In this document: positions 15,723-60,892 of the stretch, piece by piece
Layout of the letters: every line of letters starts with the position of its first letter
How positions within the stretch are numbered: the stretch's first letter is position 1
Source: an archaeon
GTDB taxonomy: Archaea > Iainarchaeota > Iainarchaeia > Iainarchaeales > 0-14-0-20-34-12
Assembly: GCA_038046645.1 (NCBI GenBank)
Contig: JBBSVU010000006.1
Span: 1 to 64,000 of the forward strand
Direction: 5' to 3'
Length of the DNA stretch: 64,000 nt
Notes under the pieces: model-generated
What the model saw: the letters and a program-made list of their open reading frames with translations, nothing else
The model's database searches: none
Told to the model about the DNA's origin: nothing
Translations under genes and position numbers: made by a program

Positions 15723-16068
15723 ATTTACCTTATTGATAGTAATTACTTAAAAATATTACGGTAATTACCTTATTGCCCCCAAACGCCACATATCTCTAAA
15801 GTAAGTGCTTTTTTATGCATTTTTATTTACCCACGCAACCCGCCTTAGTTTGATTTAATATTAAAAAACAAAGTAATTGATTTTTCATTAATGAAAAATC
15901 ATCCCCTTGTTAGAAATCTAGTCTATTTTTTGAAAGTAATGATCCGTTTTTTATGTTTTTATCCCTTATCTTTAGGTTAGGACGTACCTAAAATCAGAGT
16001 AATTGTTAATTTTAATATACTTTATTAAAAAAATCTACCATGGCCCATAAAATTAGAAAGTAATGGTA

Positions 16069-16158
16069 TAGCGGAGGAAGGATTTGAACCTTCGACCTTC
16101 GGGTTTCCAACATTAAAGTTATGAGCCCGACGGGCACTCCTGGCTGCCCTACCCCGCT
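16069..16158 (-). tRNA. initiator tRNA-Met(CAT) with a 15-nt intron at 37/38 (16105-16119)
   Basis: A1-T72 pair, GGG/CCC anticodon stem, TTCAAAT T-loop. Confidence 0.92.
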
Positions 16159-16329
16159 ATTTTTCAGTAAATATAAGGACAAAAACGGTAGTATTCTATT
16201 TTAATCGTTCTAAATTTACGTGTTTTACTAATCCTTGTTGCTTTTTATCCTTTTATTTAATAAAAAAGGAAAATACTCCTTTTTAAAGTTTAATTATTAA
16301 TTCTAAAATACATCCAAGTTTATGTGTTT

Positions 16330-30136: not shown

Positions 30137-30940
30137 TTGCCCCTATTTTATCTTATGATTAAAGACCATTTTGGGAAAACCTATCAGAAGATTGTGGCTG
30201 AATTGGATAAAAAAAAGGGTTTGGCATTTTTGGTCATAGACCCGCCAAATCAGGAACCGAAGTTAGCAGGAAAGCTGGCGCAGATTGCAGAATCCAATAA
30301 TTTCGGCGCAATTGCCATTGGGGGGTCAGTTGGGGCGGAAGGAAAACTGCTTGAAGAAACCCTGCAGGAGATAAAGGATAACTGCAAGCTTCCTAGAGTT
30401 TTATTCCCTGGCAATATCTCAACATTGTCGGCAAATGCTGATGCTATTTATTTTATGAGCATGTTAAATTCAACAGATCCTTATTATATTACCGGGGCAC
30501 AAATAGCTTCCTCCTCATCTATTAAAAGAATTAAATTAGAAGCAATCCCTACTTCCTATATTATTGTTGAGCCAGGAAGGGCAGTTGGGTGGATGGGCAA
30601 AGCCAAATTAATACCCAGGGATGTTCCGTATCTAGCAGCAATAACTGCGTTAGCAGGGCAATATATGGGGGCTCATTGGGCAATCCTTGAATCAGGGGGA
30701 GGAGCACCAGAACCAGCTCCGCTTGAGATGATTTCATTCACAAAGAAAATGATTGATATTCCGTTAATTGTTGCTGGTGGTGTCAGAACTCCTGATTGGG
30801 CCTATAAAGTAATCAAGGCTGGGGCAGATATCATTCACATTGGCGCTGCAATAGAGGCAACAAATGGAGATTTGAAAAAAGCAGATTCCAGGATTTCAGA
30901 ATTCAGCAAAGCAGTTGAAAAAGCAGCAAGGGAAAAATAA
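30137..30940 (+). CDS. geranylgeranylglyceryl phosphate synthase
   Basis: IDP, IGGS, LFPG, LESGGGA and VAGGVR motifs. Confidence 0.9.
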   Translation: MPLFYLMIKDHFGKTYQKIVAELDKKKGLAFLVIDPPNQEPKLAGKLAQIAESNNFGAIAIGGSVGAEGKLLEETLQEIKDNCKLPRVLFPGNISTLSANADAIYFMSMLNSTDPYYITGAQIASSSSIKRIKLEAIPTSYIIVEPGRAVGWMGKAKLIPRDVPYLAAITALAGQYMGAHWAILESGGGAPEPAPLEMISFTKKMIDIPLIVAGGVRTPDWAYKVIKAGADIIHIGAAIEATNGDLKKADSRISEFSKAVEKAAREK

Positions 30941-30976
30941 TTCTTTTTCTTATCCCTATTTTTGCAATAACCTAAA

Positions 30977-31897
30977 TTATTTTCTTATCTTTTTCTCTTT
31001 TTCTAGAATCTCAAAAACAGTCCTTGCAATCGCTTCCTTAGTATCATAGCTTGGTTTCCAGCCTAATGCCTTTATTTTTTCTATGCTATACCATCTCCCC
31101 CTTGTTAACCTGTCAAGATGCTCTGGGCTTACAATTGATTTTTTGCCAAATAGTTTTCCAATAACTAAGTAAAAATATGCCAAAATTTTTCCAATAACAG
31201 TAGGAACGCTTTTCTGGTTTTTGTTCATTCCCAAGGATTTTCTTATTTCAAGTATTACCTCTTTCAATGTAAGCGGGCTTTCTTCTGCAATATTCAATGT
31301 TTCCCCAGCTGCTTTTTTGTGTTCAACCACAAATATGAGTGCATTAACCAAATCAGTAATATAGATCATCTGCCATTTATTCTCCCCATTCCCTATTAGT
31401 GGGAAATCCTTTCTAATTAGCTGAATTATTTTTTCCCAATATTCATTTTGCCCGAGAATAATTGTCGGCCTTAGAATATTTATAGTAATTAACTCTTGAT
31501 ATTCATTCAGAATACGCTCTGCTAATAATTTAGTTTTTTCATAATGTGTTTTGGGGTTTAATTTAGATTCTTCTGTTTTTATTTCTTCACAATCGCCATA
31601 AACCCCTACCGAACTCATTAAAATAAATCTTGAAACTTTGTTTTCAACAGCTGCTTTAATCAGATTTTCAGTTCCAGTAATATTTACTTTATTTAGCAGC
31701 GGTGAATGTTCATCCAAAACAGCAGCCAAATGCAGGACAATATCAATTGAGCCGCACGCAGCTCTGCACTGCCCCACATCTAAAATGTCTTCCCCTTTTT
31801 TGGAATCAAATTCCCGGATCCAATGCCCCCTTTTTCTAAGAACCTCAACAATTCTCTGCCCAACAAAACCTGAAGAGCCGGTTACTAAAATACGCAT
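30977..31897 (-). CDS. NAD-dependent epimerase/dehydratase
   Basis: GSSGFVG, HLAA and YxxxK (YEKTK) motifs. Confidence 0.9.
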   Translation of the reverse strand: MRILVTGSSGFVGQRIVEVLRKRGHWIREFDSKKGEDILDVGQCRAACGSIDIVLHLAAVLDEHSPLLNKVNITGTENLIKAAVENKVSRFILMSSVGVYGDCEEIKTEESKLNPKTHYEKTKLLAERILNEYQELITINILRPTIILGQNEYWEKIIQLIRKDFPLIGNGENKWQMIYITDLVNALIFVVEHKKAAGETLNIAEESPLTLKEVILEIRKSLGMNKNQKSVPTVIGKILAYFYLVIGKLFGKKSIVSPEHLDRLTRGRWYSIEKIKALGWKPSYDTKEAIARTVFEILEKEKKIRK

Positions 31898-32056
31898 GAT
31901 TATCCACAGTGTTTTATGATGTTAAAAAAAAATAATATATTGTACTGAGTTAAGTATAATTTATTAATAAATGTTTTTGTTGACAATCTTTTTTCCAATA
32001 ACTATGAAATTTCACCAAATGCTCTATTTTTAACCTTTTTTTTGGTTTGATTAGTT

Positions 32057-33124
32057 ATGATAGGCATAGATGGAGCACACGGTGAGTCCGGAGGGCAGAT
32101 TTTAAGGACAACTTTGGCATTATCCGCACTTTTGCAAAAAGAAATAGAAATAAAAGATATTAGAAAAGGCCGTGAGAAACCAGGCTTGAGGCCACAGCAT
32201 TTAGCTGCAGTAAAAACAATGGCTAATGTTTGCAATGCCAGGATTTCTGGCCTGTTTGAAAATAGCACTGCTTTAACTTTTAATCCTACAAAAATCCAGT
32301 CAGCACAATTGAATATTAATATTTCAACCGCAGGTTCAGCTGCATTGCTTTTGCAGCAATTATTTCCAGTTGCATTGTTGGAGGAATTTACCTTTAGAAT
32401 TGTTGCTGGCACCGATGTTCCATTTTCTCCATCACTTAATTATTTGAATGCTGTTTTTTGCCCTATCATCAAAAAATTGGGTGCGAATTTTTCACTTGAA
32501 CAAATGGCTCATGGCTATTATCCCATAGGAAATGGCCGTGTTGTTTTTAGTTCAAAAAAAGCAAAGCTTCCATTAAAACCAATAAACATCAGCAAATTAG
32601 GCAATCTTGAGTGCTTTAAACTATTTTCACATTCTTCAGGGCTGCCAATGGAGGTAGTGGATAATCAATTATGTGCAGCAAAAAATATTCTCTCAAAGAA
32701 TTTTGAGGGTATTGATATTTTTGACAAGATTGATTTTTCATCCAGAAAGGATACGATAGGCTCAGGGATAGACATCTTTGCATGTTTTTCCTCTGGTGCG
32801 GTTTTAGGCACAAATTCTTTAGGTAAAAAAGGCATTCCGGCAACAAACGTTGGGAATGAGGCAGCAGAAAAAATCGTTTCAGAATTAAAAGCTGAAAAAC
32901 CTTGCGATTCCCATTTGGCTGACCAGCTTATTATATATATGGCTCTTGCAAAAGGCATTTCAAAGATAGAGTGCACAAAATTGACAAACCATGCTCTGAC
33001 AAATATCTGGGTCATAGAGCAATTTTTGCCAGTAAAATTCCAAGTAACTGGGAATCTTAATGAAGCAGCAGAGATTTCAGTTGAAGGCATTGGATTTACC
33101 CTCCAAGATAACCCAAGTCTTTAG
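32057..33124 (+). CDS. rtcA: RNA 3'-terminal phosphate cyclase
   Basis: GGQILRT, PGLRPQH, HLADQL and the catalytic TNHALTN motif. Confidence 0.95.
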   Translation: MIGIDGAHGESGGQILRTTLALSALLQKEIEIKDIRKGREKPGLRPQHLAAVKTMANVCNARISGLFENSTALTFNPTKIQSAQLNINISTAGSAALLLQQLFPVALLEEFTFRIVAGTDVPFSPSLNYLNAVFCPIIKKLGANFSLEQMAHGYYPIGNGRVVFSSKKAKLPLKPINISKLGNLECFKLFSHSSGLPMEVVDNQLCAAKNILSKNFEGIDIFDKIDFSSRKDTIGSGIDIFACFSSGAVLGTNSLGKKGIPATNVGNEAAEKIVSELKAEKPCDSHLADQLIIYMALAKGISKIECTKLTNHALTNIWVIEQFLPVKFQVTGNLNEAAEISVEGIGFTLQDNPSL

Positions 33125-33160
33125 AATTAAAATAAGTAGTTATTCAGAATTCCTTGCTGC

Positions 33161-34354
33161 TTATTCTTTACGGTATTTCTTTTTTGCATTATTTAATGCA
33201 ATGTGCACTGCCTGAGTACTTAAAGGCATTTCAGGGTCTAATACCTTACCAACTTCCCACAAATAAGGGAACCTTCCCTTTTCCCTAATTGTCCTTCTTA
33301 CAAGTTTTGTATAGGCAGCAACAGCCCTTCTTTCTGAGGGTGCTAGATTGGCAGGCATTTCCTGCGTAAAAAATTCAGAATATCTATTTTGACTAACAAT
33401 GCTTGACCTCCCATCTGAAGGTATGCTTGTAGTTTCTGCAACCTCCCTATATCTTTGTAATGTACTTCTTTCTCTTTTACTTTTTCTGAAAGTATTCAAT
33501 ATAAAAAAATTAGTGTGCATTCCAATAAAGGAATGTACTTTCATTCCTTTCGTTGGATCATACTCATCCAATTTTTCAAATAGCATTGCAGTTATTGCAG
33601 CAAACATCTCACTATTATTGCAATTATACCTTTTCATAATGCTGTAGATTAAGCCTTTATTTTCTTTTATTTTATTGGCTTTTTCCCTAGGGCTGAAAAG
33701 ATTTGTTTTTACTGCTTTATGCTCAATCCTTTTTGCTTTTCCCTTTTGCCTTAATTTTTCATAAATAGAGACTACATCATTTTTAGTTATGGTTCCATCG
33801 CCATGTTCTTTTATATACTGTGGAATGTCATTTATTCGAATTTTTCTGGCAGGATCCGTTAAAATTTTCTTAACCATTGCTAAATCCCTTTCGCTAGGTA
33901 AAGGCCCTTGGCGATGTGTCTCTAGAAAAGCTAATTTTCCTAATCTTCTAATTTCTGGTTCAGTCCTTAATCCAGAATTTATTAAAATGGCACGCACAGT
34001 TCTTCCAGCGACTTTAATTCCTTCATCACCCATTTTTCTGGTGATCTCCTCAACATTCAATTTTCTAGTCTTCCCTAAAGGGCTTTCCACTTCTGAAGCA
34101 GCCAATTCTTTTATCTTTTCTATTGTTTCTGTAGGAACCTTCTGGTCTGAAAGTGCAATTCTTTTTGCCCTATCCCATTGTTCTTTTGATAGTCTTGAAT
34201 ACTTTCGAACAGTAGTTGTATCAACCCCAATACGCTCTGCTATCTCTATTTGTGTTAATGGCCTTTTTCTTGGTCTTTTTGCAAGTTTTCTTATTGTTGC
34301 TGTAACTTTTTTATTAGGAACCTTGGCGTTTGGGAATCTTCCTTTTGCTAGCAT
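33161..34354 (-). CDS. divergent sigma70-like protein (regions 2 and 4) with N-terminal tandem HTHs
   Basis: NKGLIYSIMKRY...EKLDEYDPTKGMKVHSF resembles region 2; LAPSERRAV...LWEVGKVL...STQAVHIALNNAKKK resembles region 4. Confidence 0.6.
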   Translation of the reverse strand: MLAKGRFPNAKVPNKKVTATIRKLAKRPRKRPLTQIEIAERIGVDTTTVRKYSRLSKEQWDRAKRIALSDQKVPTETIEKIKELAASEVESPLGKTRKLNVEEITRKMGDEGIKVAGRTVRAILINSGLRTEPEIRRLGKLAFLETHRQGPLPSERDLAMVKKILTDPARKIRINDIPQYIKEHGDGTITKNDVVSIYEKLRQKGKAKRIEHKAVKTNLFSPREKANKIKENKGLIYSIMKRYNCNNSEMFAAITAMLFEKLDEYDPTKGMKVHSFIGMHTNFFILNTFRKSKRERSTLQRYREVAETTSIPSDGRSSIVSQNRYSEFFTQEMPANLAPSERRAVAAYTKLVRRTIREKGRFPYLWEVGKVLDPEMPLSTQAVHIALNNAKKKYRKE

Positions 34355-34424
34355 AATCTTATTACTTATAAAATAGTTATTAAATTGTATGGAATGGTTA
34401 TCCTGATTTTGTCTTCAATTAAAT

Positions 34425-34805
34425 TTAAAGCAATTCATTTTCAAGCAAATCAACAATCATATTCTTTACAATTTCATTGCACCTTTTCTTTGGCTTTAAA
34501 ATCCTGCAGCATGCTACTTTATTCCTTGCAATAAATTTCTGGTGCAGTTTATTGCTGATTGCATAAGCTTCAGCTTTGCTCAAATCCTTGTTTTTCAGGT
34601 TGGAAATTAAGATTGCTCCGATTAATGCCCCACATACACACCCCGAATTCAAACCAGAGCCAAAAAACTGTGCCAAATTTTCAAATTCTTTTTTGTTTTC
34701 CAAACCTAGCTTCTCTGTGCATATTTTAAGGACACATTCACAACAATTCTTTTTGCCATACATTTCATTTACTAATTTCTCAATTTCTTTTTCATCAATC
34801 TTCAT
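34425..34805 (-). CDS. C-GCAxxG-C-C family putative redox protein
   Basis: NCCECV, GCVCGALIG, CC..L and final C. Confidence 0.85.
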   Translation of the reverse strand: MKIDEKEIEKLVNEMYGKKNCCECVLKICTEKLGLENKKEFENLAQFFGSGLNSGCVCGALIGAILISNLKNKDLSKAEAYAISNKLHQKFIARNKVACCRILKPKKRCNEIVKNMIVDLLENELL

Positions 34806-34813
34806 AAGAACCC

Positions 34814-35587
34814 CTATTTTGTTATCTTTTTAATTAATTTTCCTTCACAATTCTTATCTGCAACTTTCCACAATTTTTCGAAATGTTCTGCATATGTTTC
34901 CGCTAACTGTTTATTCCTTATCATAATTACGCTGATTGGCATCTGCCAAATCACAATGGCAATTTTATCTCCATAAATAAAAGTGTTAGTGGGGTTTAGG
35001 TATTCGGATTCAAGAAATCTATATTTTGTGGATGGGTTATCAAAAATCAGAATGCCTTTCTTCTTGAGGGAAATTACCCTTTCCTTTATGCCATTTTCCC
35101 TGAGCTTTCTGAAGTATTGTGGCATAAAAATTGGCAAAGTTTCATCATATTTTGTGTCATCAAGCCCGAATAAGCAAACATCTTTTTTTGTGCGGATAAT
35201 ATCCGTCAAAAATACCTTCAAACCTTCTTTTCCCTTAAACACTTCTACTTTTGTCTCCAGGTTATCTTCTTGTGACCAAGAAATAAGATCGGGCAAGCAA
35301 TTCTGAAGCTCTTCTTTAGTTTTTGCTATTTCATTATTTTTTTCTTCAAGATACTCTAAAAGCTTGTTAGGGTGATGTGCTTGGAACACCTTCTTTTTAC
35401 CTTTATGCACATAGCTTATTAGTCCTCTTTTTAGTAATGTTTCAAGTTTGTCGTAAACATGTGGTCTATAAATGCCTGTTTTTTGTGAAAGTTCATATGC
35501 TGAAGCTTCTCCACCCCTCAACAATGACACATATATTTGAATTTCATTATCAGATAGCCCCATTTTCTTTAATACTTCTAATTTCAT
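34814..35587 (-). CDS. TrmB-family transcriptional regulator
   Basis: GLSDNEIQIYVSLL...RPHVYDKLETLLKRGLI wHTH; C-terminal FEKLWK. Confidence 0.9.
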   Translation of the reverse strand: MKLEVLKKMGLSDNEIQIYVSLLRGGEASAYELSQKTGIYRPHVYDKLETLLKRGLISYVHKGKKKVFQAHHPNKLLEYLEEKNNEIAKTKEELQNCLPDLISWSQEDNLETKVEVFKGKEGLKVFLTDIIRTKKDVCLFGLDDTKYDETLPIFMPQYFRKLRENGIKERVISLKKKGILIFDNPSTKYRFLESEYLNPTNTFIYGDKIAIVIWQMPISVIMIRNKQLAETYAEHFEKLWKVADKNCEGKLIKKITK

Positions 35588-51173: not shown

Positions 51174-51331
51174 TGCAGCCGACGGGATTCGAACCCGTGT
51201 CAAGACCTATCCTCATTTTTTAAATATCCAAAATTCTTTTCTTTGGATAATACCTAGACTTTCTTTTCTTTCTAAGAAAAGAAAGGCTTGGTTTTGGAAG
51301 GGTCTGATGCTAACCACTACACAACGGCTGC
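51174..51331 (-). tRNA. tRNA-Gly(TCC) with an 86-nt intron at 37/38 (51209-51294)
   Basis: GCAGCCG/CGGCTGC acceptor stem, AGACC/GGTCT anticodon stem, CTTC/GAGG BHB helix. Confidence 0.88.
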
Positions 51332-60789: not shown

Positions 60790-60892
60790 CGAGCCCGCTG
60801 GGATTCGAACCCAGGACACCCAGATTAAGAGTTTCACCTCATGTTATAATCAAATAACAGAACTGGTGCTCTGCCAACTGAGCTACGGGCCC
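60790..60892 (-). tRNA. tRNA-Lys(CTT) with a 30-nt intron at 30/31 (60833-60862)
   Basis: Spliced arm CCAGA-CTCTTAA-TCTGG; BHB helix CACC/GGTG with 3-nt bulges. Confidence 0.9.

Follow-up and report, generated by a model that had tools for sequence, protein, structure and literature searches.

On the accepted view TBP, TFB and TFE are the only factors with which archaeal transcription begins, and what a sigma-70-like protein could be doing in such a cell is the question raised by one gene of an archaeal contig. The gene lies at 33161..34354 on the minus strand of a 64,000-nucleotide stretch of DNA (positions 1 to 64,000 of contig JBBSVU010000006.1, GenBank assembly GCA_038046645.1), which was analysed as a whole and is referred to here as the window. 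It is an open reading frame (ORF) for 397 amino acids plus a stop, begins with ATG and is free of internal stops, and its multi-domain product is called P0001; all residue numbers given below refer to this protein. The standard view of archaeal initiation by TBP, TFB and TFE is outlined in a review (PMC7289017), and sigma-70-class genes have been known from DPANN archaea since at least 2021 (PMC8204110). The first-pass annotation, made from the letters alone, had described the product as a sigma70-like protein with additional helix-turn-helix (HTH) domains. Our profile comparisons indicate that residues 216-397 are a sigma-70-family module of sigma2 and sigma4 without sigma3, and on balance P0001 is probably a regulator of transcription that binds DNA sequence-specifically and descends from a two-domain sigma factor.

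As a single sequence, P0001 was observed to match the Pfam family Sigma70_r2 with an E-value of 0.0018 at 18.5 bits (cut-off 24; residues 229-294, profile positions 2-70 of 71) and the NCBIfam model TIGR02937 (sigma70-ECF) with an E-value of 1.2e-4 at 21.7 bits (cut-off 42.9). Its closest relative, P0002, likewise stays under the Sigma70_r2 cut-off with 18.1 bits. No Pfam region 4 match was obtained for P0001 as a single sequence, and a single-sequence phmmer search of PDB gave no sigma match, its best rows being unrelated proteins (E 0.011). The decisive evidence for sigma homology is, in our judgement, the family profile. When a profile of ten family sequences was compared with 177,635 PDB sequences, sigma factors formed 53 of the 56 matches at E<=10 (best E 3.4e-4), and these matches run colinearly through regions 2 and 4. 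A profile of 21 family sequences matched RpoD-type proteins in a library of 5.8 billion proteins at E 4.9e-7, and the matched proteins are 600 residues long and carry all the sigma Pfam domains. The same profile was aligned by hhalign with four true sigma factors at a probability of 96.6 % and E 5.2e-10 over 163 columns, which cover residues 223-395. In this alignment the sigma3 stretch of the templates forms a gap against a 23-residue linker of P0001, and region 4 follows downstream of region 2 in a colinear path through region 4.2 to residue 395. The first-pass annotation had aligned ENKGLIYSIMKRY...FFILNTFRK, which is found at residues 231-291, by eye to sigma70 region 2 and the C-terminus to the region 4 HTH; hhalign reproduces the same register for the former, above chance, and the colinear alignment bears out the latter. 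In a language-model Atlas, residues 205-397 are nearest to small (180-210 residues) sigma-like clusters, mostly from phages, at 0.95-0.96.

The structure of P0001 was predicted with AlphaFold2 (AF2) at a mean predicted local distance difference test score (pLDDT) of 79.3 and a predicted template modelling score (pTM) of 0.30, a value that would be expected for a beads-on-a-string protein. The model was compared with 48,161 PDB chains without a prefilter (structural comparison, VIA); the tool itself cautions that a Z-score under about 13 may reflect a common arrangement in helical folds. The ranks 1-15 are sigma-factor entries throughout, with Z 8.6-7.1 and, in the domain-only rows, a root-mean-square deviation (rmsd) of 1.9-3.6 Å over 70-83 residues. 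As an example, residues 215-304 of the model superpose on 5uxx_C with 2.4 Å over 80 residues and on 2o7g_B with 1.9 Å over 71. Sigma4-type matches, which start at residue 310, 314 or 329 and end at 397, have Z 5.6-6.7 and comprise sigma-28, SigF, SigD (SigD4), region 4 of sigmaE and the C-terminal HTH of WhiA. The three-dimensional fold of sigma2 is found in the predicted model. A comparison with sigma region 2 by profile and by structure had been proposed by the first-pass annotation, and it gives a significant match by profile and 15 sigma factors as the top structural neighbours. The predicted fold supports the profile result and is no proof by itself. The following modules were delimited, all of them on the minus strand.

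Residues 1-14: basic tail.
34145..34312, minus strand (residues 15-70): HTH module 1, with the recognition pair LTQIEIAERIGVDTTTVRKY; AF2 helices at residues 15-26, 35-42, 46-52 and 57-69.
33911..34144, minus strand (residues 71-148): HTH module 2 with a beta-hairpin, winged-helix-like; placed by the model, VIA and the alignment to relatives.
33710..33910, minus strand (residues 149-215): third three-helix module, winged-helix-like; helices at residues 155-166, 174-184 and 191-203.
33440..33709, minus strand (residues 216-305): sigma2, sigma-70 region 2-like; placed by Pfam (18.5 bits), hhalign and VIA (Z 8.6-7.1).
33371..33439, minus strand (residues 306-328): acidic low-confidence linker in the place of sigma3; placed by pLDDT, composition and the hhalign gap.
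33164..33370, minus strand (residues 329-397): sigma4, sigma-70 region 4-like HTH; placed by hhalign and VIA.

At least two extra N-terminal HTHs had been read in the first-pass annotation from the peptides LTQIEIAERIGVDTTTVRKY and EEITRKMGDEGIKVAGRTVRAIL, which are located at residues 33-52 and 102-124 respectively, and the model gives three three-helix modules (15-70, 71-148 and 149-215). Modelled separately, the N-terminal 215 residues have a pLDDT of 78.6. Module 1 has weak generic HTH matches in Pfam (residues 30-67, E 0.016-0.075) and matches PHROG DNA-binding families with E 8.3e-5 to 0.0016. Module 2 consists of a helix (75-86), two strands (88-90 and 96-98) and three further helices (101-110, 117-126 and 132-147) in the model; VIA aligns it with the RpoN domain of sigma-54 (8re4_M, Z 6.3, rmsd 2.5 Å over 58 residues, 24 % identity), with a Timeless DNA-binding repeat (Z 6.1) and with the N-domain of ArgR (Z 5.3). 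For module 3 the C-terminal domain of DprA (Z 5.8) and Fur-family DNA-binding domains (Z 5.4-5.7) were obtained, and modules 1 and 2 taken jointly match the bipartite domains of Tc3, TnsB and sigma-N at Z 5.7. The folds matched by the N-terminal modules in VIA are DNA-binding HTH or winged-helix folds only (Z 5.0-6.3). The sigma4-like HTH has three helices in the model, the first of them long, and pLDDT falls below 50 at residues 302-318 in the linker region. P0001 has an isoelectric point (pI) of 10.25 and a net charge of +39; each folded module is basic, sigma2 (pI 9.95) among them, and the linker has a pI of 4.68. The protein has neither a hydrophobic signal nor a membrane segment, the highest 19-residue Kyte-Doolittle mean being 0.64. 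P0001 is a cytoplasmic, all-helical and very basic protein of five modules that has no sigma3 and no region 1.1.

P0001 is a near-orphan, and an exhaustive HMMER search over 1.84 billion representatives returned only five proteins at E<=0.001. P0002 (398 residues) is 59 % identical to P0001 over the full length, P0003 has 494 residues, P0004 (194 residues) consists of the C-terminal module alone, and P0006 (240 residues) has N-terminal HTHs and a C-terminal HTH with the region 2-like part missing. P0005, also matched by HMMER, was set aside as an unrelated HTH repeat protein. A profile of P0001 and its first four relatives led to proteins of about 300 residues in other genomes of the same order, and a profile of the C-terminal module brought in further family members. 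The usual form of the family has about 300 residues and is built of one N-terminal HTH, sigma2, a spacer and sigma4, and the two-domain order of sigma2 and sigma4 is kept throughout. When the family is aligned, the one N-terminal HTH of the shorter relatives falls on module 2, and modules 1 and 3 are additions found only in P0001, P0002 and P0003. Judged from these alignments, P0001 is a long-form member of a small, patchy sigma-derived family in Iainarchaeota (Diapherotrites, DPANN). Identity between P0001 and P0002 is highest in sigma4 (72.5 %) and sigma2 (67.8 %), followed by module 3 (58 %), module 2 (54 %), module 1 (52 %) and the linker (39 %); the sigma-derived part is the most strongly constrained.

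The C-terminal-module profile has matches in 16 of 215 genomes of the phylum and, within one family, in 8 of 23 genomes searched, and it found none in a genome of the same genus (74 % complete) or in one of the same family (94 % complete). Two genome matches, L006 (a DnaG-like ORF) and L007, were weak and taken as spurious. No relative was obtained when contigs were searched with P0001 (genome contigs), with P0003 and an alignment (metagenome contigs) or with P0004 (viral contigs). A cluster look-up of six relatives gave singletons throughout with uninformative names. In PHROGs the N-terminus of P0001 matches generic DNA-binding families only, and one relative has a match (E 2.4e-4) to a phage family labelled 'sigma factor'. 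In one genome (G104), three tandem sigma-like paralogues of 303, 311 and 307 residues were observed (L052:8961-11899, plus strand) together with a fourth, truncated-looking one of 181 residues on another contig (L044:1486-2028, minus strand), and this is a local family expansion.

The positions that matter for the mechanism of a sigma factor were read from the hhalign register. In region 2.2 the sigma consensus d-l-x-q lies over E249-M250-F251-A252; in regions 2.3 and 2.4, t-y lies over S275-F276, w over H280 (with M279 before it) and q over F283. We take the d..q of region 2.2 and the t-y, w and q of regions 2.3/2.4 to be the positions by which primary sigma factors contact the beta' clamp helices and melt and read the -10 element. 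The Tyr/Trp-pair/Gln set for -10 melting and reading is not present in P0001 in this register. The first-pass annotation had stated that the YxxWW aromatics are replaced; this applies to the Trp pair, which is Met279/His280, but not to the Tyr position, where Phe276 keeps an aromatic residue. The relatives of about 300 residues have an acidic residue at two region 2.2 positions (the consensus d and the residue after q), and P0001 and P0002 have Ala/Ser there. These changes would argue against a group-1-like mechanism only, and not against every sigma-like mechanism, because extracytoplasmic function (ECF) sigma factors are not known to carry the Trp pair either. A scan for sigma-70-type promoters around the locus remained at chance level, with 10 found and 9.6 +/- 4.1 expected.

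The gene is carried on a contig of 213,056 bases in an assembly (G000) of 1.17 Mb and 25 contigs that is 89 % complete and 0.43 % contaminated. An Archaea_SRP RNA was found in the window at 124.5 bits, and the window also codes for RadA, RPA, PcrB (geranylgeranylglyceryl phosphate synthase type), S19e, L31e, eIF6 and prefoldin and holds intron-bearing tRNAs. Judged by RadA, the closest genomes that bear a name belong to 'Candidatus Diapherotrites' (94 %) and, at about 70-74 %, to 'Candidatus Iainarchaeum'. From these archaeal markers and the neighbours of RadA, therefore, the host is a DPANN archaeon of the Diapherotrites/Iainarchaeota group. Two Rfam tRNA matches were not called by ARAGORN, at 51174..51331 (minus strand, 158 nt) and 60790..60892 (minus strand, 103 nt), and a tRNA-Met of 92 nt lies at 16068..16159 (minus strand); all three are presumably intron-bearing archaeal tRNAs. 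The same DNA is also present in groundwater and aquifer metagenomes from five studies. Four sequencing runs were compared with the P0001 gene, all as contigs, and uncovered parts carry no meaning; pieces identical to the gene, with 0 other letters, occur in groundwater DNA runs of three studies.

G000 has one archaeal RpoA' and one TFB, and no bacterial RNA polymerase (RNAP) was found in it. The clamp coiled-coil of RpoA' is the homologue of the bacterial beta' clamp helices, and this segment is nearly invariant in 19 relatives. A complex of RpoA' 1-340 (19-row alignment) with residues 216-397 of P0001 was predicted in two runs without controls, and its score of 0.00 is no evidence either way. 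No match to TBP (PF00352) over the cut-off was obtained in G000, and 29 of the 31 genomes searched (G000 counted), among them the one of the same genus, have such a match; the missing TBP is most likely an assembly gap in a genome that is 89 % complete. A 92-residue ORF outside the window (L049:1432-1710, plus strand; G000 contig 6, 113335-113532) has a weak match of 16 bits to a single TBP repeat. Open frames of 88-130 residues with one TBP-like repeat exist in 14 relatives, with nine scoring above the Pfam cut-off, and this group may be a conserved single-repeat TBP-like protein. Another ORF, of 241 residues on G000 contig 5 (L048:1381-2106, plus strand), matches the TBP profile weakly with its N-terminus (17.5 bits) and is presumably a protein of RNase H type whose N-terminal domain is TBP-like.

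The P0001 gene is single-copy in G000. Two other sigma-like genes were found in this genome, a 467-residue ORF on contig 5 (Sigma70_r2 22.5 bits, or 25.6 in the six-frame genome search) and a 238-residue FliA-like ORF on contig 7 (Sigma70_r2 15.3 bits; Sigma70_r4 27.6 bits, over the cut-off). Both were considered as close paralogues and rejected, with hhalign probabilities of 3.4 % and 10.6 % against the P0001 family.

The surroundings of the P0001 gene contain the following features.

32057..33124, plus strand: RtcA (RNA 3'-phosphate cyclase), the convergent neighbour; Pfam PF01137, E 9.6e-72.
34355..34424, minus strand: AT-rich intergenic spacer of 70 nt with TATA-like runs, upstream of the P0001 ORF.
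34425..34805, minus strand: C_GCAxxG_C_C Cys-rich putative redox protein of 126 residues, upstream and co-directional; Pfam PF09719, E 4e-19.
34814..35587, minus strand: TrmB-family regulator of 257 residues, upstream and co-directional; Pfam PF01978, E 3.8e-16.

The genes for TrmB, the C_GCAxxG_C_C protein and P0001 run in one direction, separated by 8 and 70 nt, and could form an operon; it is also possible that the 70-nt spacer is a promoter of the P0001 gene itself. In a second genome (G089) the sigma-like gene likewise has a TrmB homologue immediately upstream, and the window TrmB is 33 % identical to that homologue over 237 residues (BLASTP, E 5e-43). In a third genome (G106), PcrB, a 157-residue ORF, an epimerase, RtcA and the sigma-like gene have the same order as in the window at 30137..34354, and the sigma-like gene has the opposite orientation to its counterpart in the window. 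The P0001 gene has a GC content that resembles the rest of the window, and 0 inverted-repeat pairs were found around it. By its gene order the P0001 gene is chromosomal, inherited and positionally stable. The adjacency of the C_GCAxxG_C_C gene to the sigma-like gene is absent in G089 and G106. By analogy with zinc/redox anti-sigma factors the C_GCAxxG_C_C protein may be a redox-sensing partner, which is pure speculation, and no recognised anti-sigma domain was found in RtcA, the Cys-rich protein or TrmB.

Two further arrangements were noticed near sigma-like genes. In four genomes from two families the sigma-like gene is directly preceded, in the same direction, by a conserved gene for about 125 residues that has the motif QxWxPPFxK and belongs to no Pfam family; the product of this upstream gene is a candidate partner of the sigma-like proteins, and one query did not find the upstream gene in G000. 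A tyrosyl-tRNA-synthetase-like gene adjoins the 238-residue FliA-like ORF of G000 and also a 359-residue family member in the genome G087, and this neighbourhood may be a second conserved position for sigma-like genes.

L033:849-1226, plus strand: QxWxPPFxK gene.
L031:756-1172, plus strand: QxWxPPFxK gene.
L035:601-987, plus strand: QxWxPPFxK gene.
L036:2877-3242, minus strand: QxWxPPFxK gene.
L003:258-2118: tyrosyl-tRNA-synthetase-like gene with sigma-like gene.
L029:355-2565: tyrosyl-tRNA-synthetase-like gene with sigma-like gene.

Five helical modules, uniformly basic and including at least four HTH-type units, are most readily understood as those of a sequence-specific DNA-binding regulator. 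We infer that sigma4 and the N-terminal HTH modules would read double-stranded DNA at or near promoters and that P0001 would modulate initiation by the normal archaeal machinery of TBP, TFB and RNAP. The sigma2-like domain would persist as a working surface that touches a protein, possibly the RNAP clamp, or DNA, and would not act as a classical promoter-melting domain. Several observations weigh against a DNA-binding regulator of this kind. P0001 alone scores under the curated cut-offs of Pfam (PF04542, 24 bits) and NCBIfam (TIGR02937, 42.9 bits). The structural Z-scores are all below 9, which is middling for helical folds, and Foldseek with the whole model against PDB gave rows that are almost all sigma chains with a best E of 0.059 and TM <=0.21. 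With the N-terminal model Foldseek returned noise only, for example calmodulin, and nothing at E<=0.001; the fold assignments of the N-terminal modules (Z up to 6.3) look generic and would support no family membership. The sole RNA evidence is one 165-nt contig from one metatranscriptome library, identical to 33793..33957, which is a weak hint of transcription and may be carried-over DNA. What this reading accounts for least well is that sigma2 and sigma4 are conserved best of all modules, although a plain HTH regulator could do without sigma2, and this strong conservation therefore leaves room for a real contact with RNAP.

Such a contact would be central if P0001 were a true sigma-like factor of the archaeal RNAP, with its sigma2-like domain on the RpoA' clamp coiled-coil and its HTHs directed to special promoters, alongside or instead of TFB and TBP. 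The strong conservation of sigma2 and sigma4 in a constant order agrees with this, as do the near invariance of the clamp coiled-coil, the acidic residues that the shorter relatives keep at the two region 2.2 positions and the persistence of several unrelated sigma-like genes in a 1.17-Mb genome. We nevertheless regard it as unlikely rather than implausible, for at these places in region 2.2 P0001 and P0002 have Ala/Ser, His and Phe stand in regions 2.3/2.4 where sigma factors have Trp and Gln, sigma2 has a basic pI and G000 possesses a TFB. The distribution is patchy as well (16 of 215 genomes, with the same-genus and same-family genomes missed), and the family therefore provides no general factor. 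It is also rather unlikely that the sigma module was domesticated as an accessory initiation factor, in which the sigma2-like domain would sit on the RpoA' clamp coiled-coil, a segment shared by both domains of life, and sigma4 and the N-terminal HTHs would choose a promoter set of their own. An architectural or nucleoid-associated DNA binder of little sequence specificity, which reuses the sigma modules as basic helical binders, would account for the charge of +39, the pI of 10.25 and the five basic helical modules with their flexible connections (pTM 0.30, pLDDT 79); its patchy, lineage-specific distribution, the conservation of recognition-helix-type HTHs and the TrmB regulator gene nearby make it quite unlikely.

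Matches of the N-terminal regions to NCBIfam IS21, IS481 and IS630 models (E 0.0015-0.026) and to the bipartite DNA-binding domains of Tc3 and TnsB, the viral origin of the top Atlas clusters and the phage sigma factors in the top BFVD rows of Foldseek (best E 0.04) could point to a mobile element or virus of which P0001 is a remnant or a regulator. These transposase and phage matches lie far under the curated cut-offs, and the gene is single-copy and has the GC content of the window, housekeeping neighbours in conserved order, 0 inverted-repeat pairs, no transposase catalytic domain in its product and no relative of P0004 among the viral contigs scanned, which renders this origin improbable. 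A transferred sigma gene that has lost its function and is decaying might be suspected from the extreme divergence (five matches at E<=0.001) and the score under the Pfam cut-off; this is highly improbable in view of an intact frame of 397 codons, folded modules that are predicted confidently and a 59 % full-length identity to P0002 in which conservation follows the domains and the linker is poorly kept. The first-pass annotation had also suggested that the protein acts on the RNAP of a partner organism. Apart from the sigma homology, a symbiotic lifestyle is generally assumed for DPANN according to the account in PMC8204110, and would fit export to a bacterial partner. This suggestion has become barely credible, as P0001 has no signal peptide or hydrophobic segment, its sigma-70 core-binding and melting positions are changed, its gene has a conserved chromosomal neighbourhood and the neighbours in the window include no secretion genes.

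The known proteins closest in architecture are the two-domain ECF-like (group 4) sigma factors (PF04542 with PF04545/PF08281; TIGR02937), which share with P0001 the order of sigma2 and sigma4, the short linker and the absence of sigma3 and region 1.1. ECF sigma2 domains (RpoE/NepR, SigC, SigK, SigR, sigmaH and sigmaE) are among its best structural neighbours with Z 8.6-7.6. P0001 differs from them in that its host has the archaeal RNAP only, in its 215 extra N-terminal residues with three HTH modules, in being basic throughout and under the curated cut-offs and in the changed region 2.2 d..q and region 2.3/2.4 w and q positions; among its neighbours no anti-sigma-like gene was recognised. WhiA is a comparable case of a sigma-derived HTH reused in a DNA-binding regulator, and residues 310/314-397 match it at Z 6.6-6.7 in the HTH only; WhiA is built on a LAGLIDADG-type N-terminal scaffold and is not known to carry a sigma2. 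Two successive linked HTH modules are also a feature of the Tc3/IS630-type and TnsB/Mu transposases (Tc3 1u78, Z 5.7 for residues 8-128; TnsB, Z 5.7), and module 2 resembles the RpoN domain of sigma-54 as described above. In contrast to these proteins P0001 has no catalytic domain, and with Z below 7 throughout the likeness is one of generic fold. The matches to IS630/Tc3, IS21 and IS481 transposases concern the N-terminal HTH region only, with 14-18 bits against cut-offs of 100-224, and the transposase hallmarks of a DDE domain, multiple copies and terminal inverted repeats were not found for this single-copy gene.

The first-pass annotation was correct that sigma-like genes had been noted before in DPANN genomes without a function. 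Castelle et al. 2021 (PMC8204110) report sigma-70-class genes (fam00359) in DPANN genomes with mis-binning excluded, state that no anti-sigma factors were found in DPANN and call the mechanism unclear. According to their Table S3, the fraction of genomes with fam00359 is 0.16 for Diapherotrites (25 genomes) and 0.39 for Woesearchaeota (196 genomes), the typical length of the family is 280 residues and about half of its members are KEGG-labelled as primary sigma factor. P0001 resembles this family, as described there, in being encoded on a genuine DPANN chromosome, and differs from it, in a comparison based on the Table S3 row, by its 397 residues, its N-terminal HTH array and its sub-threshold Pfam score. 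A full-text search of the literature outside subscription journals found no paper that tests the function of a DPANN sigma-like protein or describes this HTH fusion. P0001 is a strongly diverged architectural variant of the DPANN sigma-like proteins already reported.

P0001 shows how far a sigma module can drift under conservation, being below the Pfam threshold, basic and fused to three HTH modules. With its stable position beside RtcA and downstream of a TrmB regulator, and with its clear domain boundaries, it is a compact candidate for experiments. If it binds DNA only, P0001 would add to the examples of sigma modules turned into ordinary regulators. If binding to RNAP is true, some DPANN archaea would have a cross-domain hybrid initiation system that joins sigma with TFB and TBP.

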